Source: a virus
Lineage: Duplodnaviria > Caudoviricetes
IMG/VR virus record: IMGVR_UViG_3300027816_002956
Location: 1-62,651 of that record
Strand: one strand, 5' to 3'
DNA: 62,651 nt
The notes beneath the pieces were generated by a model, which worked only from the letters and a program-made list of their open reading frames with translations, was not told the DNA's origin and did no database searches. The position numbers were made by a program, and so were the translations under genes. Positions 2,649-46,948 of this stretch are shown one piece after another. The stretch's first letter is position 1, and the number at the start of each line of letters is the position of its first letter.

Positions 2649-2675
2649 CTATCTAGTCAACTTTAAAGGCAAAAA

Positions 2676-7738: not shown

Positions 7739-7740
7739 AT

Positions 7741-11891: not shown

Positions 11892-12296
11892 ATGGCTACC
11901 GTAACAACAAAAACAACAAGACAATATAAAGACTTAGACTTGTCTTTTAATGTTCATCCTGTTCGTAAAGATATAAACAAACATATTGACGAACAGGCAG
12001 TTATAAATTCATTAAAAAATATAATTTTAACAAATCATTATGAACGACCTTTTGAACCAGATTTTGGATCAAATATCCGATCAATGTTATTTGAAAATTT
12101 AGATTCAATAACAGCAATAACTTTAGAACGAGAGATATTACAGACTATTGAAAATTTTGAGCCTAGGGTAAGTGTGACCAAAGTAACTGCAATACCTGAT
12201 TATGACAATAACGGATATAATATAAAATTAGATTTTTTAGTAATTAACTTAACGAACCCAATAACAATTCAATTCTTTTTACAAAGAGTAAGATAA
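11892..12296 (+). CDS. gp25: Baseplate wedge subunit (T4 gp25)
   Basis: YKDLDLSF, SLKNIILT..YERPFEPDFGS and IENFEPRV motifs. Confidence 0.95.
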   Translation: MATVTTKTTRQYKDLDLSFNVHPVRKDINKHIDEQAVINSLKNIILTNHYERPFEPDFGSNIRSMLFENLDSITAITLEREILQTIENFEPRVSVTKVTAIPDYDNNGYNIKLDFLVINLTNPITIQFFLQRVR

Positions 12297-17175: not shown

Positions 17176-17178
17176 ATA
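17171..17178 (+). promoter_or_regulatory. T4-type late promoter (AATAAATA) for gp8
   Basis: Lies 5 nt upstream of the gp8 ATG and overlaps the gp7 stop codon. Confidence 0.6.
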
Positions 17179-17183
17179 GACCC

Positions 17184-21500: not shown

Positions 21501-24500
21501 TGAATGATATTGGATCTTTTGAAAAGAGAATCAAAGGTCTAGAATATTATGTTGCATTAACTTCGTTAGAAAAAAATGCAGCTGACTCAAAAGTATTAGA
21601 TGCTGATGGATTAGAAAGATCTAAGTACGGCATTTTAGTTGATAACTTTACTAATCGTGATGTTCAATCAACATATGGTGATGTTGGATTTGATAACAGA
21701 AACCTTATTGAAGAAGGCGAACTGAAACCTGCATCTTTAATGAGAACTTTTAAAATGAAATGGTCATCTGCCAATTCATCAGGTTCTTATGCGGCTATTG
21801 GTGTAAATGACCAAAAGTCTTTGATGTTGAATTATACAACAAGTTCTTTTGCTTCGCAACCATATGCCACCAAATTTGTACCTGTCGCAAATGCTTTATT
21901 TGCTAATTTTAAAGGTACAATGAGATTATTTCCAGAATATACAGGTGATGTAGATACTGGACATACTGCCAGAGTAACATTAAACTCTACTCAAGGTTTA
22001 GATAATGCTTTTAATTTTATTAATGAAGCATTTAAATTTATTTCTGATCAAAATCCAACATGGGTAAATGATAAAGACAATCCTTTTGCTAAAGTAGTTG
22101 ATACTAAATGGTTTGAGACCGTAACAACAGTAGATAACAGTACAGTACAATTAGGTCGCAGAGAATTTGGTAATTTACAAACTACAACAGATAGAGTTTA
22201 TATCTCAAAAGGTGCTGAATTAAACATGAAACAAATCAGTAGTTCAACATCGCAAGTTGATGTTGGTACTTTTGTTACTGATTTAGCAATTCAGCCATAT
22301 TTAAAACCAAGAGATATTACTTTTACAGCATCTTCATTAAAACCTAATGCAAGATACTATGCATTTTTTGATGGTGTTAATATCGACCAATACGTTGTAG
22401 TACCATCAAAAATTAAAGTTCTTTCAGGTGTTAATTCAAATTCCGTATTCATTTCTGGTGAATTAGCTATTATTGCTAATAATGGTACAGAGTTAAACAG
22501 TTTTATAGCGTCTTATCAAAGTGGTGGTACATCATATAGAATGGTTGTTGTTACGAATAGTGAAAGAGGTTCATCAAATGTTAGTGTTGTAAACGAAACA
22601 GGATTAGCTTTAACAGGCAGTAAAGTTATTTGGGGTGTAGACAGCAAATCAGTATATGGTATTGATTCTGTATTAGAACATAAATCAGGATTAACTAGAG
22701 GTATAACTTCTAGTACAATAACTTTGGCACCAGATGCACCTTCTGTAAATATTGCTGGAAATACAATAACATTTGTTCATAGATCTGGAAGTTCTGATGG
22801 TTATGGAGCTGTTTATAATGTTATTGCTTATAACACTTCTACAAAAGTGGCAACAATTCAAGAAACAACATCTTCTGTTGAACAATCTTCTACTTGGGTT
22901 TACAGTATCGGTGTTAATAGAGCAAATAAGTTAGGACAAGTTTCGGGAGTATTTTATCCTCCTGCAGCTACATTTAGAAACGGTGAAAGAGTTTTACGTT
23001 TAACAGAATCATTTAATAACACTTATGATGAAGATGCAATTTCGTTTGCTGAAAAATCATATGTTTCTTCTGGCATAAAAGTAAATAAAACTAATCTTGT
23101 AAATACAGTTTATAATGTTGATGTTGGTGTTAAATTTGTCGGAAATGCATCTTCACCATTATTGCAATCTACAGCTGTTAGGCAAGAAATTACTTCAACG
23201 TGGCGTGTTGATCCAATGGCTCAAACATTCTTCATTGATCCTGAAGTTTATCCAAATGGTTTATTTGTTGAGAATGTTAAATTATTTTTTGCAAACAAAG
23301 ATGAGGACAATATTCCTGTAAGTGTTCAAATAAGACCTACGGTTAATGGATTACCATCTTCTGACTTTATTTACCCAGAGTCTATTGTTACAAAATATCC
23401 ATTTGAAGTAAATACAACTACAAGTCCAAATTTCAATTCATCTTCAAATTATACTAAATTTACTTTTGCATCTCCTGTTTTCTTAAAGGCAGGTTTATAT
23501 GCTCTTGTTGTTTTAACAGACAGTCCTTCTTACTCACTTTGGGTTGCTGAAAAAGGAGCCACCACGACAGGTAACCAATATGTGTCCGTAAATCCATATG
23601 TTGGTACATTGTATAAATCTCAAAATGCAATGGAATATGTACCTTACTTAAATGAAGATTTGATGTTTGATATGGATCGTTGCATATTCTCAAGTTCACC
23701 TGCAACATTTATTTTAGAAAATGAAAGACAGAGTGCAAAATATAATATTGATAAATTCAGATTAATAACTAGACAATTAGAAACTCAATCTGATACACCA
23801 TTTACAATTGATTATAAGTTTAAATCAAAAATGGCAGGTGGTGCAAAAGAAACTGCTTATAGAGATCTAATCCCATTCGTCACATATTCTATGGGTGATG
23901 ATGATTTATATACTGTAGGCAATAGAAGAAAAGATATAGAAAATCAAGGAGATTTTTCAGTATCTTTAACTATCTCAACAACAGACAATGCTGTTTCACC
24001 ACTCGTTTCACTTGAAAGCATTTTTCTAAATGCTTGGGAAAACTTTGTTGATAATGCTGAAATTACTGTAGATGATTTTAATATTATTACACCAGGAGGT
24101 GGTTATTCTAACAGTAATGTCGTGACAATTACTTCAAATACTGGAACAGGAGCTCTTGTTTACTTAGTAACAAACGGTGCTCAAGGTAATGTTATTGGAT
24201 TAAATGTTGCTTCTTCTGGTTCTGGTTATTATGATGATTTTTCTATATCTGTACCCGGAACAGGATTTGGCACAATTACTTCAAATGCTGAAATTGTTCT
24301 TAATTCTGAATACGACAGTAGTGGTGGCCCATGTTTAGCAAGGTATATTACTAAACCAATTACTTTGGCAGATGGATTTGATGCTGGTGATTTGCGAGTA
24401 TTTTTATCTGCAAATCGAAGAGGTGTTTCTGATATCCATGTATATTATAAAATACTTTCTGGATCTGATTCCACAACATTTAAAGACCGTCCATATCAAA

Positions 24501-24730
24501 AGATGGAATGTTTTAACCCATCTACAACCGCATCTCTAACAGAAGATGATTTTAGAGAGTTTGAATATAGGCCGTCATTAACTTCTGATTCGGTAACATA
24601 TACTTCAACAAATGGTGGTACATTTGATTCGTTTAAAACATTTGCTATTAAAATTGTTTTAACAACAAGTGATCCATCAATTGTTCCAAAAGTAAAAGAT
24701 TTTCGTGTAATTGCTTTACCATCAGGTTAA
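18533..24730 (+). CDS. Large virion structural protein (VrlC-like / DUF4815-type)
   Basis: PYFDDFDEDKNY.RVLFRPG.SVQARELTQLQ, APGA.RY, LARRTFEESGNY, DFRP, YYL.RID, DPMAQTF and FAIKIVL....P.VKDFRVIAL motifs; follows gp8 as in T4-like cyanophages. Confidence 0.88.
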   Translation: MTTFFNYDPYFDDFDEDKNYMRVLFRPGYSVQARELTQLQTILQNQIEKFGNHIFKNGSPITGGKISLDDRAFYLILNSQYENEDIDVSLFLDKTIISYNSSKTVRAKVIAVDDTTTNPILILKYLSADFFNEEDEIKIFGQNIFAQVKDTSAVGRSYVASIQDGVYYFKGNFVKIVPQFLVLELFYKVGYNATTINKKPTYKVGIEFEENIVDEIDDTTLLDPAQGASNYQAPGATRYEIATRLSKRTLDSADESSFFEVIRLVDGVKTKEIDYPVYSEIEKTLARRTFEESGNYTVDPFVLSLEEEAYDANNTLDSNSFTAVLDPGKAYVGGYEVQTIAPTRIQIPRARQTSNVSDYDLPTNYSSFVVLANTTGTLDISSFPELDIHCTPHTTIDFSSTNAYNSTKIGTLRANMMKYNDASSSVLGSTHTFTVNVFDVSSKPITGTVLTVGSTNTVIELDAATSTGSQANCYANMYFRITDGAGQFLAPILIRESNSISQTVTLSQALPFIPSSNTYSIESDFKVARSISQKSGSSKIFAADVGSDSKDSTTGFSFITEPTKTSLVFDTPFESMKSGSISNFDFYARKLYSDNLSDGTGQMTISTTGTDTFDFAGSPGTLSDNQILNNIICFIRYNSTSNSTSGIAPNTVVSLANNLFTVTAISNTSITVDFDTAGVRADFIITTKVNNAENGTTGAIRGKQLLPLSNTSHEKVPYNLDTAGDSLDFANTGSVINITDGLVFEDIGATFINGANTIAQLKTPGTVVSLQVPDIYEIVRITDSKSTTTNVTTAMLTNDDHDVTSHYEFDNGQRKTHYDHATIKLKRGYSSPTGSSLLIQYKYLKHQAAPSPQNEGLFTVDSYLKTGSNFTYNEMSKFLSNEDGKLISLRSCLDFRPTRTIASNTFFGAVNVDPDRTAELSFEYYLSRIDRLVVKPSKEFSVLSGKSAVSPIPPPVDTNDMLIYTLDIPPYTETVKEIKAEFKNNKRFTMNDIGSFEKRIKGLEYYVALTSLEKNAADSKVLDADGLERSKYGILVDNFTNRDVQSTYGDVGFDNRNLIEEGELKPASLMRTFKMKWSSANSSGSYAAIGVNDQKSLMLNYTTSSFASQPYATKFVPVANALFANFKGTMRLFPEYTGDVDTGHTARVTLNSTQGLDNAFNFINEAFKFISDQNPTWVNDKDNPFAKVVDTKWFETVTTVDNSTVQLGRREFGNLQTTTDRVYISKGAELNMKQISSSTSQVDVGTFVTDLAIQPYLKPRDITFTASSLKPNARYYAFFDGVNIDQYVVVPSKIKVLSGVNSNSVFISGELAIIANNGTELNSFIASYQSGGTSYRMVVVTNSERGSSNVSVVNETGLALTGSKVIWGVDSKSVYGIDSVLEHKSGLTRGITSSTITLAPDAPSVNIAGNTITFVHRSGSSDGYGAVYNVIAYNTSTKVATIQETTSSVEQSSTWVYSIGVNRANKLGQVSGVFYPPAATFRNGERVLRLTESFNNTYDEDAISFAEKSYVSSGIKVNKTNLVNTVYNVDVGVKFVGNASSPLLQSTAVRQEITSTWRVDPMAQTFFIDPEVYPNGLFVENVKLFFANKDEDNIPVSVQIRPTVNGLPSSDFIYPESIVTKYPFEVNTTTSPNFNSSSNYTKFTFASPVFLKAGLYALVVLTDSPSYSLWVAEKGATTTGNQYVSVNPYVGTLYKSQNAMEYVPYLNEDLMFDMDRCIFSSSPATFILENERQSAKYNIDKFRLITRQLETQSDTPFTIDYKFKSKMAGGAKETAYRDLIPFVTYSMGDDDLYTVGNRRKDIENQGDFSVSLTISTTDNAVSPLVSLESIFLNAWENFVDNAEITVDDFNIITPGGGYSNSNVVTITSNTGTGALVYLVTNGAQGNVIGLNVASSGSGYYDDFSISVPGTGFGTITSNAEIVLNSEYDSSGGPCLARYITKPITLADGFDAGDLRVFLSANRRGVSDIHVYYKILSGSDSTTFKDRPYQKMECFNPSTTASLTEDDFREFEYRPSLTSDSVTYTSTNGGTFDSFKTFAIKIVLTTSDPSIVPKVKDFRVIALPSG

Positions 24731-24967: not shown

Positions 24968-27900
24968 ATGACTATTCCTATCATAACAAGAACGAATACC
25001 ATTGATGAATGGCGAATTCAAACAAATTTGTCAGCTATAGAATTAAATAATTTAAAAGCTAACAATTATACAAAATCAAATGGTACTTTAGAATTAGCTA
25101 ACAACTCTGTACTTTTAATAAGTGCAAACGGTACCGCACTCCAAGTTTCAAATAGTGCTTTTATCGGTAGAAATTTAGCAGTAACAAATAACGTTTCTGT
25201 TGGTGCAGTTGGTTCTGGTGTTGGTAATGTCTCTATAGGTAACTCTGTTTTGATTGCTGGACCCGGAGAAGCAGTTAACGTTTCAAATAGTGTTTATGTT
25301 GGTGGCAATAGCAATGTTAGAGGCAACGTGTATGCGAACAATGCAGTTGTCAATAATTCTGTTTATGTTGGTGGTACTGCAAACATTGCTGGTATTGTTA
25401 CACTATCAGGAACAGGTAAAGTATTGGAAGCAAATACTGGAACTGTATATGTTAATAATGCATATCTAACTACTGCAACACTAGATCAAGCAAACGTTGA
25501 ATTGATCTATGCTCTTGAAGCTAAAATTGACAACCTTTCTGATATTGCTTCTGCTGTAATTGGTATTTTGCGTGTAACAACAGGTAATATTTATTATCTA
25601 ACATCGAACACTTTATATGCTAATACTGGAACGATCAGAGATTTTGTTGCAAACAGCACAGGTAATGTAGTAACACTTATATCAAATGTTGCAACAATTA
25701 ATACCGCAACTATTGGTAACTTAAACGCAACAAATGGTACGATTATCAATGGTAATGTAGTAACACTTATATCAAACAATGCTACTTTAAATACATCTAC
25801 TTTAGTTAATATAACAGTAACTAACGCTGCAATTGCAAATGCCGTTATTTCTTCGGCTGCAATTACGACTGGTCAAATTACAAATGGTACAATTACAAAT
25901 GGTACTATCATTAATGGTAATATAGTTACTTTAATTTCAAATAGTGCAACACTTAATAATTCTACATTGTTAAGTTCAAATGTTGTTTCTGCAAATATTA
26001 TAAATGCTAATGTTTCTGGTAATGTAAACTTTACCAATGGATCAACATTAAGATTTAATTCTGGATCAGCAAATGATGCTCTTGTTGTAGATTCAGGTAT
26101 AACTTCTTTACAGACTGTCGTTGTTGAAGGAAACTTAACTGTTGCAGGATCATTTACTCAAACAGGTAATATTAATTTTGAAACAGATAGATTCATTTTC
26201 AATGCAAATACACCTGATAATAAAGATGCTCTTATAATAAACCGTAGAGTTGCTGGAAATAATGCTCAAATTATTTGGAATGAAACAAATGATCGTTGGG
26301 AAGTTTCAACAGGTAATACTTGGACAACAACTTATAAGATTTTAGATGGCGCAGACATTTATACAGGTGTTGATTCTGATAGTACAACACTTGTAGCTTC
26401 TGCGAGTGCTGTTAAATTTGCATATCAAGCTGGTGGTGTTGTAGCCGGTGGCTATGCTAATGCAGCTTATAGACATGCCAATTCTGCATTTGTAAGTCAA
26501 AATACAACAGGTGTTTATGCCAATACTGGATATGCTCATGCAAATTCAGCACATGATGTGGCAAATTCTGCTTTTAGTGGAGTAAGTGGTACACATGCAA
26601 ATGCGGCCTACAGACATGCAAATTCATCTTATGCACATGCAAATACGGCTAATGTATCTGCTCAAGCTGCCTTTGATGCGGCTAACAATGCTTTTGCAGC
26701 TGGTGGTCAATTTGCTTATAGACATGCTAATTCAGCACACGATATTGCAAACTCAGCTTTTGCTGGAACAACAGGTACTCATGCCAACTCAGCATATTTT
26801 ACTGCAAATACCGCTTTAACAAATGCTGAAATTGCTGACCAAAAAGCTGTAGCAGCTAATACTAGAGCCGCTTTAGCTAACGTTCATGCAAATGCCGCAT
26901 ATAATTTTTCAAACACAATAAACAACTTTGCTTTTCATGCTTATACTCATGCTAATGCAGCGTTTGCTCGAGCAAATACAGGAATTACATCTACTGGAGG
27001 TACTATAACAGGTGATTTAACAGTTAATGGAACATTGAATGCTACTGGAGCTTCAATTTTTGCAAATGATATGAAAATTGCAGATGGAATTATAACACTT
27101 AATTCTGACATATTACAAACTGCATCACCAATTGAAAATGCTGGATTAGAAATAGATCGAGGCGCTTCACCTAATGTATTCTTTTTATGGGATGAAACTT
27201 CCGATAGGTGGAGATTTACAAATGATGGTACAAATTATCAAGACGTTGCAGGTCAAACAACAATTAATTCATCTTTAGCCGCATATGTACCTTTAGCAGG
27301 TGGAACCATGACTGGTTTCTTGACTCTGAGTGCAAGTCCATCAAGTGCGATGCATGCTGCTACAAAAGCTTATGTTGATGCTACAATAGGATCAGCAGAC
27401 CTAACAAATTTAAATGCTTCAAATTTAACAAGTGGTACTGTTCCAGTTGCTCGCTTGAGTGGATTATATAATATCAATGTTAATGGTAATGCTAACTATG
27501 CAACAACAGCTGGATCTGCCACAAGTGCAACGACCGCTAGCACCGCTTCCAGTTTAAATGGTGGTAATATTCAAAACTGTACTGGTTTCGCACAAAGTAG
27601 TGGAGCATTTTCAATGACCGGAAGTTCTTTCGGTGTAAATCCCTATGCACAATTTTATGGAGGCATAAGATCTTTTGCTGATATAAATGCATCTGGAGCA
27701 AATATAACAGCAAGTACTTTTTATGGTAATTTAAGTGGAACAGCAACACGAGCTCTTTATGGTGACTTGGCAGAAAAGTATCTAGCTGACGGCGAATACG
27801 ATGAAGGTACCGTAATGGCCATAGGCGGCGAAAAAGAAATAACAGCAGCAACAATTGCCAACTTTAGAGCTCTAGGTGTAGTATCATTGAGACCTGCACA

Positions 27901-28111
27901 CTTAATGAATGCTGATTTGGAAAACGGAACAATTGTTGCTTTAAAAGGTAGAGTTCCTGTAAAAGTTATAGGCAAAGTAATCAAAGGTCAACCTTTAGGA
28001 TTAAGTAACATAGCAGGAGTAGCAAGTGTTAATGAAATGAATTACTTTGCATTATCTCTGATAGATAAGAACGATGATGGTGAAGGTATAGTCGAAGCAG
28101 TTATTTTATAA
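24968..28111 (+). CDS. Tail fibre protein with C-terminal autocleaving chaperone-like domain
   Basis: NTIDEWR N-terminus, beta-rich and Ala/Asn repeats, HAATKAYVD, and C-terminal YGDLAEKY...GVVS..PAHLMN...VALKGRVPVKV (peptidase G2/IMC-like). Confidence 0.78.
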   Translation: MTIPIITRTNTIDEWRIQTNLSAIELNNLKANNYTKSNGTLELANNSVLLISANGTALQVSNSAFIGRNLAVTNNVSVGAVGSGVGNVSIGNSVLIAGPGEAVNVSNSVYVGGNSNVRGNVYANNAVVNNSVYVGGTANIAGIVTLSGTGKVLEANTGTVYVNNAYLTTATLDQANVELIYALEAKIDNLSDIASAVIGILRVTTGNIYYLTSNTLYANTGTIRDFVANSTGNVVTLISNVATINTATIGNLNATNGTIINGNVVTLISNNATLNTSTLVNITVTNAAIANAVISSAAITTGQITNGTITNGTIINGNIVTLISNSATLNNSTLLSSNVVSANIINANVSGNVNFTNGSTLRFNSGSANDALVVDSGITSLQTVVVEGNLTVAGSFTQTGNINFETDRFIFNANTPDNKDALIINRRVAGNNAQIIWNETNDRWEVSTGNTWTTTYKILDGADIYTGVDSDSTTLVASASAVKFAYQAGGVVAGGYANAAYRHANSAFVSQNTTGVYANTGYAHANSAHDVANSAFSGVSGTHANAAYRHANSSYAHANTANVSAQAAFDAANNAFAAGGQFAYRHANSAHDIANSAFAGTTGTHANSAYFTANTALTNAEIADQKAVAANTRAALANVHANAAYNFSNTINNFAFHAYTHANAAFARANTGITSTGGTITGDLTVNGTLNATGASIFANDMKIADGIITLNSDILQTASPIENAGLEIDRGASPNVFFLWDETSDRWRFTNDGTNYQDVAGQTTINSSLAAYVPLAGGTMTGFLTLSASPSSAMHAATKAYVDATIGSADLTNLNASNLTSGTVPVARLSGLYNINVNGNANYATTAGSATSATTASTASSLNGGNIQNCTGFAQSSGAFSMTGSSFGVNPYAQFYGGIRSFADINASGANITASTFYGNLSGTATRALYGDLAEKYLADGEYDEGTVMAIGGEKEITAATIANFRALGVVSLRPAHLMNADLENGTIVALKGRVPVKVIGKVIKGQPLGLSNIAGVASVNEMNYFALSLIDKNDDGEGIVEAVIL

Positions 28112-28130: not shown

Positions 28131-29555
28131 ATGAATCAGCCTTTAAATTTTTATGCAAAAAAATCTATGAAAGGAAATCCTCATGTTTTTGATGATTACT
28201 TTCAATTGAGTGCTTTAACAATTACTGTAACGAGCGCATGTAATTTACATTGCGATTATTGTTTTGAAGAACATGAAAGTAGGTTAATAAAACCCGATGA
28301 AGTAGTTGACATTATTGATGTTGCATATAAGAATTTTAGAAAAAATAATCCTACTGGTTCAATGCCATTATCTTTTTTTGGTGGTGAACCTTTTATCGCA
28401 TGGAAAACTATTCAAAGATGTATTGAACACGCTAAAGAAAAAGGTTATGATCTTTCTGTTGGCATAACAACAAACTTAACTTTGTTGACTGATGAACAAA
28501 TGGAGTTCATTGATGAGAATGATATTGGTTTGTTAGTTTCAATAGACGGCACCAAAGAAGTTCATGATAGATTACGTGATAATTCTTATGATGTTGTTTC
28601 TAAAAATGTCAAAAAACTAATAGACAATGGCATGAAAAGGTTAATAGAAGCTCGGATGACAGTTCCGCCAGGTGAATTTCATAATCTTTTAGCTGGAGTT
28701 CAAAACATTTTTTCTTTAGGTGTTGATAACATTGCTCCTGTTCCTGTTACCGATCAAGTTTGGACTAAAGATCAAGTTAAATTATTAGAAAATGAACTTG
28801 ATAAATTGTATGAATGGACAATTTCAATATACGAAGATCCAAACAATAAAAGAAACATTAGTGTGAAAATGATTGATGATTATTTGTTTCAATGCATACA
28901 TGACGAATTTGATATGAAAGGTACACCTTGTAGTTTTGGAAGTAATAAATGGCTGAGTATAGGTCCTAGTGGTGAAATGTATCCATGTCACCAAATACAT
29001 ACACGAAAAGATCAACAAGAATTGTTTTACATGGGAAATATTTTAAAAGGTGAAATACTTCCACATAGAATTTTAGGTCAGGTTTTGCCACATTCATGGA
29101 AAAAAGCTGACGATCCAGAATATACATGCGACACATGTGAGGCATATAATATTTGTAGAGGTTCTTGCCCAAGTGAAAACTATGATTTAAATAAAGATTA
29201 TTTAAAAACTCCAGATGAATGGTGTGATTGGGTTAGAATGTCAAAACGAATCACGAAAAAATACCAGAATCAACTTTTAAATAGTAAAAATTTGAGAAAT
29301 AAAAGATTAAATTCTATAAAACTAAATTTAGAGATTATGGAAATGATTGATAGGGTGAGAGAATATAATGTATACTCCCGAGAATTTCCTCTTGTTGTTC
29401 TTGATTTATATGAAAAAGTTTTAAGTTGTGAACATAATTTGTTACCTGGTTTTTCTGACTTATCAAAAAATAAATTAGCAAAATTTAGAGAACAACTAAC
29501 ACAAATTAGAGATGAATTAATTAAAAAAGAATCAATGCAAAAGGAAACAGTTTAA
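28131..29555 (+). CDS. Radical SAM/SPASM enzyme 1 (putative peptide/protein maturase)
   Basis: CNLHCDYC, FFGGEP, TTN and VSIDG motifs; SPASM cysteines C(SFG)...YPCH...CDTCEAYNICRGSCP...C. Confidence 0.93.
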   Translation: MNQPLNFYAKKSMKGNPHVFDDYFQLSALTITVTSACNLHCDYCFEEHESRLIKPDEVVDIIDVAYKNFRKNNPTGSMPLSFFGGEPFIAWKTIQRCIEHAKEKGYDLSVGITTNLTLLTDEQMEFIDENDIGLLVSIDGTKEVHDRLRDNSYDVVSKNVKKLIDNGMKRLIEARMTVPPGEFHNLLAGVQNIFSLGVDNIAPVPVTDQVWTKDQVKLLENELDKLYEWTISIYEDPNNKRNISVKMIDDYLFQCIHDEFDMKGTPCSFGSNKWLSIGPSGEMYPCHQIHTRKDQQELFYMGNILKGEILPHRILGQVLPHSWKKADDPEYTCDTCEAYNICRGSCPSENYDLNKDYLKTPDEWCDWVRMSKRITKKYQNQLLNSKNLRNKRLNSIKLNLEIMEMIDRVREYNVYSREFPLVVLDLYEKVLSCEHNLLPGFSDLSKNKLAKFREQLTQIRDELIKKESMQKETV

Positions 29556-30154
29556 TGGGTACCTCTGTACATCAATCACAAAATACGATCATCGAAAACG
29601 ATGATTATAATCCAAATACTGAAAATGATGCTTGGAATATTCGAAGAAGATATGTTGGATTAGCTGCCATTTGGAGTAATCCAAACGCTGGAGATACTGG
29701 TTGTGCTAGAACGCAAACATATAGTACGTCCATAAGAGTTAGAAAATTTTCAGATGCTGGAAGACCTTATAGTGATGGTACTATTCTTGGTCTTACTGTA
29801 AGACAGCCTGTAGACAATCAAGAAATTTTAGCTACAGATTTAGATAATGCAAGACGAATTATCAATGAAGGTGTTGCAGCTGTAAATCAATCTTTTTTAA
29901 ATTCAACAACTGGATTTATTAATCCAGCTTCTGGGTATGCAAGTCGAGATCAAGAAATTTTAGCTTCACACATCAATAATTTAATTAATACTATTATAAT
30001 CACAGAAACTAAGTTAGACATATACAATTCATATTATGATGGAGCTGACTTATGTCAAAGAAGTTGCCAAATACAATGTCAGACAGCATGCCAAACAAGT
30101 TGTCAAGGATGTAATACTTCACAATGCCACAATCAAAAATGTGGAGTGCATTGA
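29555..30154 (+). CDS. Cys-rich putative radical SAM substrate with SCIFF/CxxxC-repeat-like C-terminus
   Basis: Ends CQRSCQIQCQTACQTSCQGCNTSQCHNQKCGVH (8 Cys in 33 aa); start overlaps the rSAM1 stop (TAATG) and the stop lies 1 nt before rSAM2. Confidence 0.85.
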   Translation: MGTSVHQSQNTIIENDDYNPNTENDAWNIRRRYVGLAAIWSNPNAGDTGCARTQTYSTSIRVRKFSDAGRPYSDGTILGLTVRQPVDNQEILATDLDNARRIINEGVAAVNQSFLNSTTGFINPASGYASRDQEILASHINNLINTIIITETKLDIYNSYYDGADLCQRSCQIQCQTACQTSCQGCNTSQCHNQKCGVH

Positions 30155-30155
30155 T

Positions 30156-31481
30156 ATGTTTGATGTAATTTCCAAAGTAACATTAAAACTCAGCACATAT
30201 TGTAATTTAGCTTGTGAGTATTGTCATCAAATGACTGATGATAAAAAACATCATGTTACTTTTGAAAAATATAAAGAAATGTATGACTTTTTACTAAAGA
30301 CAAATTTGTCTGATGTTGTTGAAGTAACTTTAACTGGTGGAGAAATTTCCCTTTTAGAAGAAGAATATGAAACAGCTGTAAAATGGTTCAGAAAGATTGA
30401 AAGACAGAGAGATGTAAAGTTTACTTTTGCTGTTGTTTCAAATGGTACAAATATAAAACAATTATTTAAATTAATAAAACAAGGTGATTTAAATCCTAAA
30501 AGAACAACAATTAGTTGGGATGGATTATACACCATGTCAAAGAGTCGTAAAAGTAAATTTGAAAAATTCAATGATGATTTCTTTAAAAATGTTGTTACTG
30601 AAATTGGCCAAAGTCCATGGGCAAAGCAATTAAACATTACACATGCAATAACACCTACTACCATCCCTTATTTACACGATAGTTTAGTTTTTGCTTTAGA
30701 TGCTGGTGTAAAAAATTTTGGTTTTTATTATATACATGAAGCCGATTATAGCGACAAAGAATTTTTAAAAATTTATGATGAACAAGTTACAAAATTAGGT
30801 GAAGAATTTGTAAAACGATATGAAGATTTGTCAACAAGATTTGTTTATTATAATTGGCAATTATTATATGCTAAAGAAAATTTGCCAACAGATAACAAAG
30901 AATTAATGAGAGCCACAACTCTTTGTCACAAATTAGGAAGAACGGTGCATTTTGACCCATTAGGTGACATTTATGGTTGTATTTATTTTGGAGACCATAG
31001 AGCTCTAAAACTAGGTGATTTGGAAAATGGTAATATAGATAAAACGAAATATCAAAAATTTAGTGATCAATACTTCGAAATGCCAGGTTGCAAATTAGAT
31101 AGTTGTGGCAATTCACATTGTTTTGAATGTCCAGCAAGTAACTATGTACATAAAGGAAAAATGGCGAATAGATTTAGTAACACATGCGAAATGTTATCTA
31201 TTGAAAAAAGAATTTACTATGATTTAAAACCTAAACTTAAAATAGATGAATTTGATAAAGCTTTTTATTGGATGGAAGAAGATCATTTAGAACAAAAAAA
31301 CTATGATGATAAGTATGAAACATATTTAAATGATATAGTAGGTATACCTTTAACTGAGGAAGCTTATGTTGAAGATGATGAGTACTCAAATAGATTAAGT
31401 CCAACGTATAAAAATGTTGTTACTTGGATGAAAAAAACTCCTAAGAAAAAAGAATTTACTCTAAATTTAGAAACCATATGA
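30156..31481 (+). CDS. Radical SAM/SPASM enzyme 2
   Basis: CNLACEYC, TGGEI, VSNG and ISWDG motifs; divergent SPASM CHKLG...YGC...CKLDSCGNSHCFECP...C. Start moved to ATG 30156, with GGAG RBS at 30143. Confidence 0.9.
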   Translation: MFDVISKVTLKLSTYCNLACEYCHQMTDDKKHHVTFEKYKEMYDFLLKTNLSDVVEVTLTGGEISLLEEEYETAVKWFRKIERQRDVKFTFAVVSNGTNIKQLFKLIKQGDLNPKRTTISWDGLYTMSKSRKSKFEKFNDDFFKNVVTEIGQSPWAKQLNITHAITPTTIPYLHDSLVFALDAGVKNFGFYYIHEADYSDKEFLKIYDEQVTKLGEEFVKRYEDLSTRFVYYNWQLLYAKENLPTDNKELMRATTLCHKLGRTVHFDPLGDIYGCIYFGDHRALKLGDLENGNIDKTKYQKFSDQYFEMPGCKLDSCGNSHCFECPASNYVHKGKMANRFSNTCEMLSIEKRIYYDLKPKLKIDEFDKAFYWMEEDHLEQKNYDDKYETYLNDIVGIPLTEEAYVEDDEYSNRLSPTYKNVVTWMKKTPKKKEFTLNLETI

Positions 31482-32767
31482 AAAAGAAGTTTTCAAAAAT
31501 AGGTTCTAATATCAATCATGTTTATCTTATGATGACAGAGGCTTGTCCTTTAGATTGTGAATACTGTTACATAAAAGATAGAAAAACAAAAAACAATGTA
31601 AGTGATGAAGATATTGATACTTTAATAAATGCTTTTGAGTATCATACTCCTAGAATAATTTATTTTGGTGGAGAACCTTTACTCGAAGTTGAACATATAA
31701 AAAGAGTTACTGAAAGATGGAAACATAGGTGTCAGTTTCAAGTTATAACTTCTGGATTAGTAAACTTCGATAAATTTGTTGATGAAGTTTATTTACCTAA
31801 TAAAGAAAAATTTGATATTCAAATATCTTGGGATGGTTTCGAAAATGACAACCGAGTTTTAAGAAATGGTAAAAATAAACAAGATAGAGTTATGGCCACC
31901 ATATTAAGTACCTTAGAAATGGGTATACCTCTACAAGTAAGAAGTGTTATAAATGACGAAAATGTTGATAATCTCGTTAAGATTTATGAGACCTATAGAT
32001 ATTTAAAACTTCAGTATCCACATTTGACGGGTGATATAACTATTGCTCATCAAAAACATTTCAAAGATGATTTTCCAGAAAAGTTTAGGCAACAATTTAA
32101 AACAACACTTGAAATAATTGAAGATGATATTAATAATGGTATAGAGCCTTATTTTCCATTAGAGTACATGAAAAAAATGACTAGTGCGTTAAATGGAAGA
32201 CATGTTAGTTCGTGTGATGCTGGAAATTATTTGGTTTTAAAACCAAGTGGCGCACTATATCCTTGTACAATATTAAGTCAACAAAATGATGATGTTGATT
32301 TTATCATGGGTCATATTTCTGATAGAGACTTAGATTATGATATGATGGATAAAATGCGAAAGCCAAGTGAAGCTGAAATTTGCAAAACTTGTGGAGTTAG
32401 ATCTGTATGTGATGGTGGTTGTCGATATGAAAGAGTTGCAAATTATGGTAAAGATTGGATGGGAAAAGTTTGTGGTTTTACCTGTGGTGTTTCTGAAGCC
32501 TGGTTTCATGAAACAAAAAATTGGGTTTTAAACATGAATGAAAATGTTTATGAAAAAGTAATTCAGAGATTGGTATTATTTAATAATTGGGTTATTCATT
32601 ATGATACTGGTCACCATGACGAAGCAAAAAAACACCAGACTTTTGATAGAGAACAATTGAAATTAGGTAAAAGATTAGATTTTTATAATTTTTATAAAGA
32701 CACTACTGAGAAAAAGATTATACCTATTTTGCCATTGAGTAAAGAAAAAAATGTCTTTGTCACCTAA
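31478..32767 (+). CDS. Radical SAM/SPASM enzyme 3
   Basis: CPLDCEYC, YFGGEP and ISWDG motifs; SPASM SCDAG...YPC...CKTCGVRSVCDGGC...C. Confidence 0.92.
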   Translation: MKKKFSKIGSNINHVYLMMTEACPLDCEYCYIKDRKTKNNVSDEDIDTLINAFEYHTPRIIYFGGEPLLEVEHIKRVTERWKHRCQFQVITSGLVNFDKFVDEVYLPNKEKFDIQISWDGFENDNRVLRNGKNKQDRVMATILSTLEMGIPLQVRSVINDENVDNLVKIYETYRYLKLQYPHLTGDITIAHQKHFKDDFPEKFRQQFKTTLEIIEDDINNGIEPYFPLEYMKKMTSALNGRHVSSCDAGNYLVLKPSGALYPCTILSQQNDDVDFIMGHISDRDLDYDMMDKMRKPSEAEICKTCGVRSVCDGGCRYERVANYGKDWMGKVCGFTCGVSEAWFHETKNWVLNMNENVYEKVIQRLVLFNNWVIHYDTGHHDEAKKHQTFDREQLKLGKRLDFYNFYKDTTEKKIIPILPLSKEKNVFVT

Positions 32768-33983
32768 TTTTAAAAAATCTGTTGATGGTATCGCTAAAGT
32801 AGGTAGACAAAATAAAAGATTTGAAATATTTTTAAATCTTACCTATAAATGCCCTTTGAGATGTACTTATTGTTATGTGGATTACAATAGGGCTCCTCCA
32901 ATGACACAAGAGCAGGTTGATTATGTCATTGAAAAACTTCTCATTGAACCTAAAAAAACTGATATAAAGCTTGTCACCTTTTTTGGAGGTGAACCTGCTT
33001 TAGAGATGGACATCATAGAAAATACCTTAGACAAATATTCTCATGTTGAGAAAATAAAAAATGTTCATTTTGGAATCATAACAAGTTTTTCTGTCAATCA
33101 AGATAGACTTTTAAAGTTACAAAAAAAATATCCAAAATTAGAAATAGCTATAAGTTTTGATGTTGATATGAAAGAAAGAGTCTTTATCAATAAAAAACAA
33201 TTTGATTTATTAGGTGTGGCTAAGAAAAAATTTGATATTGATTTAGAAAAGATGAAAGAAAATAAAAATAATATTTTCTTTAATAAAGTTATTACAGGGC
33301 AAGAAACAGATTTATTTGGTGATTTGAAATGGCTTCACGATACTTATAGGGACTATAAATTATTTTATAGTTTATCGTTTACGAAAACGCCTAAGTTTCC
33401 TTTTCATCCAGAAGGAAGAATAGAGGAAGGTTGGTATAAATATTTAAACTATATTTTTTCTAAGTATTTAACTAATGAAGTAGTATTTTTACCTATGTTA
33501 GTTTTACAATACTTAGATCGTTATTGGAAACAAAAAAAGAACACAGCCACTTCTGGTTGTGGTTTGGGTGGTGAATATTTTATTGATAGTAATGGGACAG
33601 TTAGTCCATGCAGTATAAGTCATCATAGAACAGATTTAATGCTTTATCATGAAGGAAAGTTTCTCGACAATAATGAACACTTTCAAGAATTAGAAGATAG
33701 TTATTGGAACAATCCTACATGTCAGAAGTGTGAATATAAAGGTTTTTGTCCTGGCGGTTGCATGGTTTTTAGGTATACTGAAAATAACGATTACAATATA
33801 CCAAATGAGGGCCAATGTATTTTGATGGAAGAAATTTTTAAGGCCTATGACAGATTTTTAAATGAACGTACAGAAAAAGAAATAACTGAGTTAACTTTTA
33901 TTCTAGCAAAAGATTTACAGAAATATCATTCGTATTGTCATCATGATGATGAACATATAGATTTACAAGCAATTTATAACTAA
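32751..33983 (+). CDS. Radical SAM/SPASM enzyme 4
   Basis: CPLRCTYC, FFGGEP and ISFD motifs; SPASM GCGLG...SPC...CQKCEYKGFCPGGC...C. Confidence 0.92.
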   Translation: MSLSPNFKKSVDGIAKVGRQNKRFEIFLNLTYKCPLRCTYCYVDYNRAPPMTQEQVDYVIEKLLIEPKKTDIKLVTFFGGEPALEMDIIENTLDKYSHVEKIKNVHFGIITSFSVNQDRLLKLQKKYPKLEIAISFDVDMKERVFINKKQFDLLGVAKKKFDIDLEKMKENKNNIFFNKVITGQETDLFGDLKWLHDTYRDYKLFYSLSFTKTPKFPFHPEGRIEEGWYKYLNYIFSKYLTNEVVFLPMLVLQYLDRYWKQKKNTATSGCGLGGEYFIDSNGTVSPCSISHHRTDLMLYHEGKFLDNNEHFQELEDSYWNNPTCQKCEYKGFCPGGCMVFRYTENNDYNIPNEGQCILMEEIFKAYDRFLNERTEKEITELTFILAKDLQKYHSYCHHDDEHIDLQAIYN

Positions 33984-33994
33984 GTGAGAACATT

Positions 33995-35146
33995 ATGCAC
34001 ATTTTTTTACCTGAATTAATATACAATGAAATAAAAGAAAATGATAAATTTAAATCTATTTACAATTCTTTAAATGATTTTTTTGATACAAAAACTAAGT
34101 GTTTAATTGATTACAATAATGAAATCAATAATGATGATTATTATAAAGATTTGAATGATTTTTTAAAGAAAAATTTATCAGAAAAAAATAATAAAATATG
34201 GAATTGTTTTAAAGTCTGTGTAGATTTTGATGAAAAAGATAGTAATAAAGATTGGGAAAAAATTAGAGAAGTAATTGATTCGTGCAAAAAAGACGATGAT
34301 TTAGAAGTAAAATTGTATGCGTACTATATGGAAATGGCAAATACTGCTGATCATGAATCTGAAAAATGGATAGAAAATGTTGAAGAATCTTTAAAATTGT
34401 TCGATCAAAATAAAGATAAAGTTTTTGATACAAGATTGTATACAAAATTTTATTGGGATGTACACGAAAAAAATAATTTTTATTTAAAAAATAAAAAAGA
34501 AAAAGATTTAATTGATGAATTTAAAAATTATCAAAAATTAGATTTAGAAACTAAAGATTTTATATTTTCAAAACATAATGATACATACACTAAAGATATA
34601 ATTAACCATAAAACAATATATACTGCAATTCAATTCTGGCATGCAAATTTAAATTCGGCGGAAAACGATCAAAAAAGTGCTGAATATGTTCTAAAAAAAT
34701 TAGATGATAAAATTGCAAATTTAGATTTCAAATATAATTCTTTTAACATGCATTTAATGGAATGGCTATGGTTAAATTTTAAATGGCATTTAGATAGAGA
34801 TAATATTCTAGCGGTTGATGTGGTAGAAATTATGATACAAATTGTTGAAGAAACATTAAAAAATAAAAATTACATGATAAGATCTTTACGTCATCATAAT
34901 TTTAATTATATTTCTAATTTTTTAATTTTAATGCAAAATTTAAATGAAGTTGAAAAAATCTTTGAAAAAGTGTTAGTAAACTATGAAAGAAAATTAAACA
35001 AATTAAATTGGACAGAAAAAGAATATAAAGTTATTATTGATAATGATCTATCAATTACTAATAACTGGTGGAACGAAAGAAGTAGAACACTCAACAATTA
35101 CAAAGAAAATATGATTTCTTCTATAAAAAATAAATTTTTAGGATAA
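33995..35146 (+). CDS. Hypothetical helical protein, paralog A (rSAM cluster accessory)
   Basis: Long AT-rich ORF; starts MHIFLPELIY and shares the DFKYxxFN motif with the next gene. Confidence 0.75.
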   Translation: MHIFLPELIYNEIKENDKFKSIYNSLNDFFDTKTKCLIDYNNEINNDDYYKDLNDFLKKNLSEKNNKIWNCFKVCVDFDEKDSNKDWEKIREVIDSCKKDDDLEVKLYAYYMEMANTADHESEKWIENVEESLKLFDQNKDKVFDTRLYTKFYWDVHEKNNFYLKNKKEKDLIDEFKNYQKLDLETKDFIFSKHNDTYTKDIINHKTIYTAIQFWHANLNSAENDQKSAEYVLKKLDDKIANLDFKYNSFNMHLMEWLWLNFKWHLDRDNILAVDVVEIMIQIVEETLKNKNYMIRSLRHHNFNYISNFLILMQNLNEVEKIFEKVLVNYERKLNKLNWTEKEYKVIIDNDLSITNNWWNERSRTLNNYKENMISSIKNKFLG

Positions 35147-35149: not shown

Positions 35150-36355
35150 ATGTTAGTTTGGCTACCAGAAAATATCTATCAATTAGTAAAAAATAATTCT
35201 GAATATATTTCAATAATTGAAGAATTAGAAAAAGTTTCTTTTGACGGAGAACTTTCTTCTACTGTACCTGAAAATACTCCAGAAACATGGCCTATCTATA
35301 GAAAATTATATTCATTTTTAAATTCTGTTGAGAAAAATGAGTACGAACAGATTACTTGGGAGTTGAATAAAATTCTATTTGATAAGTTGTTTCTCGAAAT
35401 AGATAATGAAAATTTTTCATATACAGACAAATTATTATCTTTAAAAGATACCTTAGTAAACATAAAAAATAAAATAGATTCTTTAGATGATTCTGTTATA
35501 AAAAACCTTCTAAAAATTAATTTTTTACAATATGAAATTTTAGCTTTGTCTGAAAATAATAGTTTTTTTTCTGCTGATTTGATTGCAAAAAGGCAAGAAT
35601 TGTTATCAACATTTGATTCGATTAAAAAAGAAAATGTGACTTATGATTCTGTAATAGATTATTTTGAAAATTATTTTAATCTATACATGGTAAATTTAAT
35701 AAAAAATGAAAGTTTGGTGGTAAAATCTTTTAATGATTTACAATTAAATTTTAATAAATTTAGAATGGATCTTGATTTAAAAATTGATGAAGTAAAAAAT
35801 TCATCAATTGAACACAACTACTTTAAACTTTTTGATGTTCTAAATTATTTAAAATTGTACTTTATAAACTTTTATTATGAAAGTTTTATACCAATGGTTA
35901 ATTTAACTGATGATGAAAAATTGATAATTGACAAAAATATTGTAAAATATGCAAAGAGTGTAGATTTTAAATACAAAAATTTCAATATTATTACCTTACA
36001 TTTTTATTGGATAAGAATGAAAATGTTTTTTTCATTTAAAGACTATGATCAGTTTTTAAAAGTTTTTAATGAAATGTGTCTATATTTAAAGTTAAATTTA
36101 GATAATAATAAAAAAGATGTGATTAAATCTATAATTTTTCATACGCAATCTGACCACATAGATTTTTTAATTTTGATCAAAGTTTTATTAGAATTAGATG
36201 AGGAAATGAGTAAATTTTTTAAACAAGAAAAACAATTAGAAAATTTAAATTTATCTGAAAAAGATATTACTTTGATAAATGCAAATAATGATAACTATAA
36301 AAATTCATCTTACTTTTTTGATATTAATTTCATAAAGAATAGGTTCTATGGATAA
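35150..36355 (+). CDS. Hypothetical helical protein, paralog B (rSAM cluster accessory)
   Basis: Starts [10 protein letters not shown], contains DFKYKNFN and ends IKNRFYG (paralog A ends IKNKFLG); overlaps erpA. Confidence 0.75.
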
Positions 36356-36683
36356 TTCTCAAATTACGATAACAGATAATGCTGCCTTTAAAATTGCAGA
36401 AATTATAAAAGATTCTGAAGCTGAAGGTCAATTTATTAGAACTTTTGTTCAAGGAGGCGGTTGTTCTGGTTTTCAGTATGGTTTTACTTTTGAAAATGAA
36501 ATAAATGATGATGATTTTGTGGTTGAAAAAAATGACATAAAATTACTCGTTGATAGTATGAGTATGACATATTTAACTGGTGCAAAAATAGATTACAAAG
36601 AAGATTTAAATGGATCACAATTTGTCATTGAAAATCCTAACGCTCAGTCCACATGCGGTTGTGGGAGTAGTTTCTCAGTTTAA
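36348..36683 (+). CDS. erpA: A-type iron-sulfur cluster carrier (ErpA/IscA/HesB family)
   Basis: [29 protein letters not shown] and [14 protein letters not shown]; all three Cys ligands are present. Confidence 0.95.
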
Positions 36684-36686: not shown

Positions 36687-36736
36687 GCCAGTTTGACTAA
36701 ATAGACGATAAATGTCTTTTAGGAGTCTCAATTGGC
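36687..36736 (+). promoter_or_regulatory. Late promoter-like ACTAAATA (36696-36703) within a hairpin that pairs with the AGGAG RBS and TTG start of the next gene
   Basis: GCCAGTT.GACT (36687-36698) pairs with AGTC..AATTGGC (36724-36736); there is also an inner AGAC/GTCT stem. Confidence 0.55.
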
Positions 36737-37064
36737 CGAATTTGTCGAACTAACCCTCGAACAGGGTGCAACTTTCAATACAGTAATTAATGTAAATGAT
36801 GGTACCGGCTCTCCTCAAAATCTAGTTGGATACACGGCACGCTCAATGATGCGCCGGTCCTACTATACTTCCTCATCCAAAGAATTTCAAGTTTCTGTTT
36901 CAACACCAGCCTTAGGTGAAATAACCATGTCTATGTCTGCGGCCAATACTGCAAATTTGACTCCAGGAAGATATGTTTATGATGTGGAGATAGATGATGG
37001 TGCAGGTGAAGTTACAAGAATTTTTGAAGGTATTATTACCGTTTTGCCTAACGTAACGAGATAA
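36732..37064 (+). CDS. Small beta-sandwich virion-associated protein
   Basis: TTG start with AGGAG RBS; EQGATF...GYTARSMMRRSY...GRYVYDVEI...RIFEG.ITV.P.VTR, a family I recognise from tail regions of T4-like phages. Confidence 0.72.
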   Translation: MAEFVELTLEQGATFNTVINVNDGTGSPQNLVGYTARSMMRRSYYTSSSKEFQVSVSTPALGEITMSMSAANTANLTPGRYVYDVEIDDGAGEVTRIFEGIITVLPNVTR

Positions 37065-37066: not shown

Positions 37067-37267
37067 ATGGCTATCACAGTACAAGTAAAACCTAGAAAAA
37101 CTACTATATCTTCTGTAACTGTTGCAAGAACAGCTAACCTCAATCTTGCACAAATTAATAATGTTGATATTATTACGCCTGCAAATAATCAAGTTTTGAT
37201 GTATGAGACTGGTACTGAACGTTGGGTAAATAAAGAAATTCCAACAATTAGTGGCGGTACATTCTAA
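37067..37267 (+). CDS. Small hypothetical fibre-associated protein
   Basis: Tightly coupled 66-aa ORF ending ISGGTF, with an L....NV......NNQVL.Y.....W.N motif. Confidence 0.65.
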   Translation: MAITVQVKPRKTTISSVTVARTANLNLAQINNVDIITPANNQVLMYETGTERWVNKEIPTISGGTF

Positions 37268-41019: not shown

Positions 41020-41036
41020 AATAACGAGAGAAAAAT

Positions 41037-42959: not shown

Positions 42960-42988
42960 CGGACTAATTGAAGGGTGTGTGTTAGATA

Positions 42989-45004: not shown

Positions 45005-45007
45005 ATA
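45000..45007 (+). promoter_or_regulatory. T4-type late promoter (perfect TATAAATA)
   Basis: Lies 5 nt upstream of the ATG at 45013. Confidence 0.75.
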
Positions 45008-45012
45008 GAACT

Positions 45013-46941: not shown

Positions 46942-46944
46942 ATA
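46937..46944 (+). promoter_or_regulatory. Possible late promoter variant (GCTAAATA)
   Basis: Lies 4 nt upstream of the ATG at 46949, the same geometry as the other late sites. Confidence 0.45.
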
Positions 46945-46948
46945 AAAA

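Follow-up and report, generated by a model that had tools for sequence, protein, structure and literature searches.

The gene described here lies in a virus record of IMG/VR, IMGVR_UViG_3300027816_002956, a stretch of 62,651 bases which was analysed as a whole and is referred to below as the window. The record, with a completeness estimated at about 15%, covers part of the genome of a very large phage, whose baseplate wedge genes are T4-like. An open reading frame (ORF) at 29555-30154 (+) translates to a protein of 199 amino acids (aa), P0001, with a C-terminal tail that is rich in cysteine, and genes for radical S-adenosylmethionine (SAM) enzymes with a SPASM region, rSAM_A to rSAM_D, stand on both sides of it. 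The genes are tightly spaced: the stop codon of rSAM_A (TAA) shares 1 nt with the ATG of the Cys-tail gene, a single nucleotide separates the stop of the Cys-tail gene from the ATG of rSAM_B at 30156, and rSAM_C and rSAM_D each overlap the preceding gene. A start at 30036 for rSAM_B was considered and rejected, as its homologues open with MF..I.K directly after the stop, and since the true start of this gene is 30156, the Cys tail is no artefact of overlapping genes. The features of this core are:

28131..29555, + strand: rSAM_A, radical SAM/SPASM enzyme of 474 aa (Pfam Radical_SAM 63.9 bits; NCBIfam PapB 180.5 bits)
29555..30052, + strand: N-terminal helical domain of the Cys-tail protein, 166 aa, with an IWxNPNAG motif, fast-evolving (AlphaFold2 model, alignment)
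29817..29848, + strand: internal direct repeat, copy 1, at the start of helix 2, NQEILATDLDN (repeat search)
29949..29980, + strand: internal direct repeat, copy 2, at the start of helix 3, DQEILASHINN (repeat search)
30053..30154, + strand: C-terminal tail of 33 aa with 8 Cys, and the stop codon; presumed modification site
30156..31481, + strand: rSAM_B, radical SAM/SPASM enzyme of 441 aa (PapB 96.7 bits; TIGR04115 55.6, TIGR04119 26.5)
31478..32767, + strand: rSAM_C, radical SAM/SPASM enzyme of 429 aa (PapB 106.7 bits; SPASM TIGR04085 48.8 bits)
32751..33983, + strand: rSAM_D, radical SAM/SPASM enzyme of 410 aa (PapB 87.6 bits; TIGR04085 43.9 bits)

DNA nearly identical to 28131-31481 occurs in sequencing runs from freshwater and lakes (some of them labelled 'fungus metagenome') of 16 studies, and 6-59% of the words sampled from this region are present in four freshwater metatranscriptome runs. 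The sequence data suggest that the source is a huge freshwater phage. A megablast search with the cassette gave no match among the GenBank phages. In a scan of the cassette, promoters were not enriched and no convincing terminator was seen inside it on the + strand.

A preliminary description of this DNA had placed the tail in the last 33 residues, from 30053, with five consecutive CQ units, and had counted a single Cys in the part before it. Translation confirms both: the tail starts at codon 167 and holds eight Cys, and the only Cys within the first 166 residues is C50. The tail reads CQRS-CQIQ-CQTA-CQTS-CQG-CNTSQ-CHNQK-CGVH, so that the protein ends in CGVH, and its spacing is C-x3-C-x3-C-x3-C-x3-C-x2-C-x4-C-x4-C. 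There is no Asp or Glu in it, and the position four residues after a Cys (i+4) is another Cys. In the AlphaFold2 model of P0001 (predicted local distance difference test score, pLDDT, 69.6; predicted template modelling score 0.69) the part before the tail has long helices at residues 21-41, 93-113 and 137-162, and residues 166-182 also form a helix, with low confidence. A prediction of the homotrimer (3 copies) scored 0.01, which is evidence neither for nor against such a form.

The exact 17-bp repeat reported earlier at 29817-29833 and 29949-29965 is present and extends to 32 nt at 81% identity (29817-29848 and 29949-29980). Its copies make up the first turns of the predicted helices 93-113 and 137-162, and the identity of the DNA is explained by that of the peptide, QEILA, for which both copies use identical codons in a genome rich in AT; in other members of the family both sites hold only the looser x-I-x-A-x-x-[IL/V]-[ND]. 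TIIENDDYN, which had been taken for a weaker first copy, was rejected as such. The repeat search does not recover it and pairs 29608-29634 with 29677-29703 instead, and the stretch precedes the first long helix.

By a word-indexed search we found 31 homologues, 125-217 aa long, and the 30 that were aligned are 33-85% identical to P0001 overall. The alignment has 26 invariant columns, among them W40 and N42, and 22 of the 26 fall inside the tail; judged from these sequences, the conservation of the tail is far beyond chance. A profile search of 1.84 billion cluster representatives found 124 proteins at E <= 1e-3, 88 of them at E <= 1e-10. The neighbours of P0001 in the ESM Atlas are 85-100% viral, and the best match to its model in BFVD is another 200-aa phage protein, labelled 'SCIFF' (E 7e-3). 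As far as these databases reach, the Cys-tail family is large and almost wholly viral or metagenomic.

For the counts that follow we used a set of 149 stored family sequences. C167, C171 and C175 are invariant in all of them, and Q172, Q176, C179, Q180, C183, Q184, C196 and G197 are at least 90% conserved. The comparison of Cys spacing between homologues that had been proposed earlier bears the pattern out, as the spacing of six Cys is retained in 128 of the 149 proteins, and 114 of these 128 end exactly 33 or 34 residues past the first Cys. Gln follows Cys 2, 3, 4 and 5 in 96, 98, 89 and 93% of the sequences, the positions of the CH[ND]Q.CG end are each 89-96% conserved, and the tail holds eight Cys and one or two conserved His. 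Variants lack the sixth Cys or have a three-Cys stub. A sub-family of the latter kind (P0138, P0142, P0144, P0146-P0148 and P0150) ends in the stub (GYCQRSCQINCQT..QKS) in place of the eight-Cys tail, and its proteins are often 740-911 aa long with Gly_rich_2 domains.

The length of the family members varies from 71 to 950 aa (median 212), and 52 of the 128 with the six-Cys spacing are longer than 250 aa, up to 950. The long members keep the N-terminal helix (R-Y-x-x-x-x-x-I-W-x-N-P), helix 2 and the last helix, with large beta domains inserted between helices 2 and 3. Pfam recognises Gly_rich_2 in six of the 149, F5_F8_type_C in three, and F5_F8_type_C_2 (NedA-like, galactose-binding) and CBM_5_12 in two each. 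In the AlphaFold2 model of P0040 (564 aa; pLDDT 69.5, 80-96 in the beta part) three helices surround a beta-rich insert, and Foldseek matches this insert to 134 PDB chains at E <= 1e-3, which are CBM32/F5-8-C lectin domains (best E 2.7e-6). The family would consist of a three-helix scaffold and a constant C-terminal eight-Cys tail, with P0001 as its smallest form.

All four enzymes have a CX3CX2C motif, and 7-8 Cys in the SPASM region; in rSAM_A the motif is at residues 37-44 and there are eight C-terminal Cys. They score 38-64 bits with Pfam Radical_SAM, above its cut-off of 29.5, and rSAM_C and rSAM_D also pass the SPASM model TIGR04085 (cut-off 27). The top NCBIfam model is for all four the ranthipeptide maturase PapB, whose cut-off of 340 none reaches, followed by models of QhpD, ScfB-related, SCIFF, CXXX-repeat and Cys-every-fifth maturases. 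The scores with the ScfB-type model TIGR03974 are 124.6, 52.7, 58.3 and 44 bits as compared to a cut-off of 425, in alignments that start at model positions 92-99. The best PDB match of rSAM_A is CteB (5WGG/5WHY; E 6e-25, query residues 25-360 against chain residues 95-430), and by its scores rSAM_B is nearest to PapB and the CXXX-repeat maturases, again under the cut-offs of the latter (TIGR04115 55.6 as compared to 350 bits, TIGR04119 26.5 as compared to 150). None of the four has an equivalog-level match to a characterised ranthisynthase (PapB, ScfB, QhpD); they are relatives and not members. Because the scores are far under the curated cut-offs, the type of reaction has to be read from the nearest neighbours, and on this measure the four enzymes are closest to thioether-forming maturases (PapB, CteB, QhpD, CXXX-repeat). 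CteB, QhpD and CrpC are described as reading the leader through an N-terminal RiPP recognition element, RRE (RiPP, ribosomally synthesised and post-translationally modified peptide), in the section of PMC13692751 concerned. The maturase alignments of our enzymes begin at residue 95 in CteB and between positions 84 and 96 in the models, and since this is past the N-terminal RRE of CteB, the phage enzymes appear to have no such leader-binding domain.

To place the gene in other phages we used a degenerate DNA pattern for the CHNQxCG end. It found 15 viral stretches with nine true members, on contigs of 18-254 kb, and at least 120 stretches in genome contigs, with one true member among the matches listed, on a 5-kb contig of a metagenome-assembled genome (MAG). 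The same pattern with the Lys fixed gave no match, and a locus search of viral and genome contigs based on P0001 and the alignment gave pattern matches of which none was confirmed by tblastn. A metagenome scan added five loci, so that the context could be compared in 15 loci (nine viral, five metagenome, one MAG), all with full-tail variants. At least one radical SAM/SPASM gene abuts the Cys-tail gene in 15 of 15. An orthologue of rSAM_A, 30-75% identical, stands immediately upstream in all 11 loci whose DNA extends that far, and B- or C-type genes lie downstream in 11 loci. In a quick maximum-likelihood tree of 38 enzymes, the approximate likelihood ratio test (SH-aLRT) gives a support of 99 to clade A (11 rows), of 98 to clade C (10 rows) and of 100 to a B super-clade of 14 rows, in which a locus is represented by one to three genes; in A and C, too, a locus contributes one gene or more. 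The rSAM_D clade has two rows only, the window and its closest relative L143 (69.9% identity), the only place where an orthologue of it was seen. The recurrence of clades A, B and C from locus to locus implies that the paralogues predate the phage lineages and have been kept side by side, which argues for different jobs.

In L014 an HNH endonuclease ORF (2342-3214, -) lies between the Cys-tail gene and rSAM_C. In L017, the complete 254-kb phage G003, two Cys-free proteins are encoded inside the cassette (6924-8252 and 8323-10851, -), with signal-peptide-like N-termini, C-terminal coiled coils and weak PHROG matches to tail needle and adhesin proteins.

The two parts of the Cys-tail protein evolve at very different rates. 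Its N-part is much less conserved than the flanking enzymes in nine of nine locus pairs, which are not independent of one another, and it evolves two to three times faster than they do, whereas the tail is conserved as well as the enzymes or better. When the window is compared with L143, the N-parts are 29-32% identical (31.7% in the rate comparison), the tails 87.9% and the flanking enzymes 70-77%. In L012 and L016 the N-parts are 41.7% and the enzymes 77-89% identical, and in L146 and L147 the figures are 33% and 79-81%. RiPP precursors usually have a conserved leader and a variable core, and in the sequences compared here the variable N-part and the constant tail are the reverse of this pattern. 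It fits a variable part that would meet the host and a constant part whose partners, the enzymes or a docking site, would be conserved.

The tail had been called SCIFF-like. The resemblance holds at a sub-threshold level, in that the SCIFF model of Pfam matches two of the 149 members (best E 8.8e-4; the homologue in L012 scores 18.2 bits as compared to 27) and TIGR03973 matches 13 at E <= 1 (best E 1.7e-3), both under their cut-offs. P0001 itself matches neither PF13165 nor TIGR03973 (E <= 0.01 in Pfam and NCBIfam; E <= 1 in NCBIfam). SCIFF and ScfB (CteA/CteB) share with the phage system the C-terminal Cys at four-residue spacing with CQ units, a neighbouring enzyme whose best solved relative is CteB, and a cluster with no obvious protease. 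We nevertheless rejected membership. A SCIFF precursor has about 45 residues (44 model positions) and six Cys, is clostridial, and is served by one maturase with an RRE. P0001 has 199 aa (71-950 in the family), eight Cys and the fixed CHNQxCG end, it belongs to a viral or metagenomic family, and it goes with four maturases, three to five paralogues in the family, none with an RRE.

Periodic Cys repeats that are predicted targets of radical SAM enzymes are also found in the CXXX-repeat systems (TIGR04115/TIGR04119/TIGR04117) and in CefB (NF038107). The target model TIGR04117 matches 29 of the 149 members weakly (E 1.2e-3 to 1), P0001 not being among them, and viral clusters near P0001 in the ESM Atlas are labelled PF27846 'tSAM_targ_Cxxx_rpt', which we take as a lead only. 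The array is variable in those systems, in contrast to the fixed-length tail, the several enzymes and the folded N-domain with lectin inserts of the phages. PapA and PapB (freyrasin) are similar in that PapB is the best NCBIfam model of the phage enzymes and that several thioether rings are made at regular spacing in one core. PapB alone makes all the rings, on Cys-x3-Asp motifs; the phages have several conserved enzymes, with Cys at i+4 and a tail free of Asp and Glu. Proteins with ranthionine cross-links are known from the QhpC/QhpD and CrpA/CrpC systems, and CrpA has C-terminal Cys motifs that include C-X-X-Q/D, as stated in the relevant part of PMC13692751. In both systems, as is proposed for the phages, SPASM enzymes of the RiPP type make Cys thioethers in a protein-sized substrate that retains its non-core part. 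QhpD and CrpC, however, have an RRE, act on a leader-like N-terminus and serve as one enzyme per substrate, and QhpC (an amine dehydrogenase subunit) and CrpA (a methanogen protein) are cellular, unlike a protein encoded by a phage in a neighbourhood of tail genes. By analogy, the Cys-tail system is nearest in idea to the CXXX-repeat targets, and also close to QhpC and CrpA. A full-text search of the literature found no description of this phage system; a radical SAM maturase is merely listed for a cyanophage in the part of PMC12801897 that mentions it.

The genes around this core bear on how the tail might be modified and on where the protein might be used. The features concerned are:

24968..28111, + strand: fibre-like protein of 1047 aa, directly upstream of the cassette (phrog_22593 at residues 917-1023, E 7e-13)
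33995..35146, + strand: accessory protein 1 (orf383), 383 aa, all-helical and TPR-like (tetratricopeptide repeat) in the predicted model
35150..36355, + strand: accessory protein 2 (orf401), 401 aa, apparent paralogue of orf383 (shared N-terminal motif)
36348..36683, + strand: ErpA/IscA-type A-type Fe-S carrier, 111 aa (NCBIfam ErpA 165.1 bits, cut-off 117; Pfam Fe-S_biosyn 77.2)
36732..37064, + strand: 110-aa protein of phrog_1084/phrog_3304, 'L-shaped tail fiber protein assembly' (PHROG)

Neither orf383 nor orf401 belongs to a Pfam, NCBIfam or PHROG family. The structure matches of orf383 in the Atlas are TPR proteins (template modelling scores 0.40-0.59). It is 43% identical between the window and L143 by tblastn, and orf401 matches the L143 homologue of orf383 weakly. 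A phmmer search with the two proteins against all ORFs of the loci found no homologues, and the sole link is an N-terminal motif, [IL][FWY]LPE.IY..IK.N, which opens both of them and cassette proteins of other phages. Proteins with [IL][FWY]LPE.IY occur in the window (two), L143, L012 and L015 (two each) and L007, and in the G003 type.

The upstream fibre-like protein has no Pfam family. Its residues 922-1042 are 49.6% identical to L143 by tblastn, and the phrog_22593 domain (the C-terminal ~125 aa, with 'YADLAE.Y') lies directly upstream of rSAM_A in both phages. In L143 it ends a collagen-like G-X-Y fibre (1094-2710), which has only this C-terminal domain in common with the 1047-aa protein. 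The baseplate wedge genes of the window (12296-18524) are on the same strand as the Cys-tail gene and the tail-fibre-like genes. Between them and the fibre a 2065-aa protein of phrog_358 (1018 bits) is encoded at 18533-24730. The gene at 36732-37064 marks the return to tail-fibre genes, 37267-50486 being tail-fibre-like, and among these genes, at 50496-52223, there is one for a 575-aa protein with RCC1-type repeats (phrog_7220, 4219, 16766). Judged from these annotations, the Cys-tail gene of the window sits in a structural (late) module. No member of phrog_219 turned up in five related records, nor did the control genomes give a match.

The reading that we favour, tentatively, is that the protein is an uncleaved structural protein or adhesin scaffold of the phage, whose tail is cross-linked by thioethers in the cytoplasm through the action of several enzymes. 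Its parts are not equally firm. That the tail is modified by radical SAM enzymes seems very probable from the class of the enzymes, the strict synteny, the Gln or Asn next to Cys and the precedents, and thioether chemistry, judged from the nearest relatives of the enzymes, is rather likely. A role in the virion or as an adhesin, suggested by the position of the gene in the tail module of the window, the lectin inserts of its relatives and the fast N-part, has about an even chance. The sequence, the family, the synteny, the class of the enzymes, their missing RRE, the relative rates of evolution and the lectin inserts are direct results of the analysis; from them we infer the thioether chemistry, the assignment of enzymes to bridges, the lack of cleavage and the virion location. 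The preliminary description had supposed that the leader is an uncleaved domain, and the 166 residues do form a conserved, folded helical domain and not a leader peptide. Together with the embedding of the gene among radical SAM/SPASM genes, this argues for an uncleaved protein substrate.

In this reading the protein would be made late, alongside the tail genes, and left uncleaved. Non-redundant radical SAM/SPASM enzymes would then modify the tail: rSAM_A, which is always upstream, and the B-, C- and, here, D-type paralogues. The most likely products are bridges from the Cys sulfur to a side-chain carbon (ranthionine), for which the Gln after Cys 2-5 and the Asn and Gln of the CHNQxCG end are candidate acceptors. 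In a plausible register, Cys(i) would be linked to position i+5, which directly follows the next Cys; in CteB the link is between Cys32 and Thr37. Since the enzymes have no leader-binding RRE, the fast-evolving TPR-like orf383 and orf401 probably hold the helical domain, which evolves equally fast, and present the tail. The missing RRE and the co-variation of the accessory proteins suggest that the folded domain is what is recognised. The ErpA-like carrier may supply the enzymes with the [4Fe-4S] clusters that they need, about twelve in all. The tail would become a covalent knot, insensitive to redox conditions, on a protein whose function lies outside the cell. The knot would act as a constant anchor or cap, with the loop between helices 2 and 3 as a variable, outward-facing site, which carries glycan-binding modules in the longer relatives. 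Thioethers would suit the staples of a virion, as virions are assembled in the cytoplasm, where thioethers can form but disulfides cannot. The most specific form of this idea, in which a dedicated multi-enzyme radical SAM pathway puts a thioether knot on a virion protein in the reducing cytoplasm and the invariant knot is a universal C-terminal anchor above which glycan-binding modules are swapped, appears possible but somewhat doubtful.

Several observations weigh against the favoured reading. The enzymes score 88-181 bits as compared to 340 for PapB, below every curated cut-off. The tail is modelled with low confidence (pLDDT 39-53), and P0001 is a minimal form, scaffold and tail, with no lectin insert of its own. 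The preliminary description held that its N-domain looks like a virion protein, which the searches do not support: there is no match in Pfam, NCBIfam or PHROGs, the best Foldseek hit in the PDB has E 1.4, and VIA-align gave just generic helical bundles with Z <= 9. A profile search of the PDB sequences with the family likewise found nothing at E < 0.2. The neighbourhoods in other phages are mostly unannotated, with weak or no tail-like matches, and L144, a T4-like phage whose Cys-tail gene has a CBM_5_12 insert and lies beside the head genes gp23 and gp21, has only the A-type enzyme within 15 kb. Tblastn with four family members as queries found no cultured phage with the family in the GenBank collection, and thus no virion proteome exists. 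To our knowledge, SCIFF has a conserved core too and no protease in its cluster, and as it shares this pattern, a peptide-like role is compatible with the invariance of the tail.

The same lack of structural homology (Foldseek, VIA-align), and the neighbourhoods outside the window, which are not clearly structural, would suit a protein that is stabilised by thioethers but never enters the particle. It could interact with the host inside the cell or after release, for example as a lectin-like effector, in exclusion or anti-defence, or as a chaperone of assembly. A fast N-part would be expected of any protein in an arms race, and the G003 cassette is interleaved with signal-peptide proteins. P0001 itself, however, has no signal peptide by eye (by inspection, not by a predictor), its gene stands in a same-strand block of baseplate and tail-fibre genes, that of L144 is beside capsid genes, and in two phages the cassette follows a gene with the same C-terminal fibre domain, and we consider such a factor unlikely. 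A further way to explain the constant tail is that the helical domain, whether or not it has an insert, is a giant leader for recognition and carriage, from which the cross-linked tail is cut off as a free ranthipeptide that may signal, inhibit competitors or counter host defences. The enzymes are indeed nearest to RiPP maturases, the core would be C-terminal as in RiPPs, and the tail resembles SCIFF and CXXX-repeat cores below threshold, in the 2 (Pfam SCIFF), 29 (TIGR04117) and 13 (TIGR03973) of 149 members given above. Such 'leaders' would nevertheless be up to 950 aa long with folded lectin domains, the leader would be variable and the core constant, and the enzymes lack the RRE that reads a leader. 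No peptidase or exporter family is found in the cassette of the window or among the annotated neighbours in L012, L014, L017 and L144, and the junction, [WFY][WFY]D-x4-C, is not a cleavage motif known to us, which makes a released peptide improbable.

Eight Cys with one or two conserved His might also bind zinc, iron or an iron-sulfur cluster, with the radical SAM enzymes acting elsewhere or assisting. Phages are known to have Fe-S clusters in tail-tip proteins and metal bound by His in fibres, the cassette of the window has a gene for an Fe-S carrier, and the low-confidence helix at residues 166-182 would put Cys at i and i+4 on one face. The linkage to cassettes with several radical SAM genes, which is seen in all 15 loci and involves three conserved orthogroups, speaks against it. 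The cassettes showed no further Cys-rich protein that could be the substrate. The Gln after Cys, conserved at 89-98%, is not needed to bind a metal, and the ErpA gene has no tblastn match in the other 15 loci. We therefore regard a metal site as very improbable, and return to the cross-linked, uncleaved structural or adhesin protein as the preferred explanation.

Radical SAM thioether chemistry has so far been known on small peptides and on two cellular protein substrates, QhpC and CrpA. In this large phage-borne family it apparently acts on the constant tail of a protein that is modular, evolves fast and often bears lectin domains, and three to five conserved enzymes without the usual leader-reading domain would do the work. 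If the favoured reading is true, an enzymatic cross-link joins the ways of stabilising phage proteins, as a covalent stapling of an extracellular structure that is independent of disulfides, and a virion or receptor-binding protein would for the first time be seen to carry a RiPP-type modification. It would also imply a new mode of substrate recognition by SPASM enzymes, possibly with TPR-like accessory proteins in place of the RRE. A compact, multiply cross-linked tag of 33 residues that tolerates large N-terminal fusions would be of interest for protein engineering.

Outside the family, tblastn with rSAM_A found only relatives of 24-30% identity, including those in phage Phass-1 and in the Ralstonia phages RP12 and RP31. 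The locus in Phass-1 (L021, OQ749652; 6953-8146) looks like a split annotation of a radical SAM gene in a code-15 phage, and the 48-aa coding sequence annotated upstream of it was rejected as a precursor, as it holds the enzyme's own CX3CX2C and is its N-terminus. In RP12 and RP31 no Cys-tail protein was found with the relatives of rSAM_A; three radical SAM genes are listed for these phages without a substrate in the passage of PMC5468394 that names them. In RP12 (L022, NC_041911) the three genes (ORF076, 077, 079) lie at 4284-11009 beside genes for 'virion structural protein'. ORF074 of this phage, 125 aa without Cys, has two helices with an I-x-A-x-x-[IV]-N-x-L motif as in P0001, each ending in H-T-H and an aromatic run, and from these sequence features it may represent a cousin of the cassette that has no Cys.

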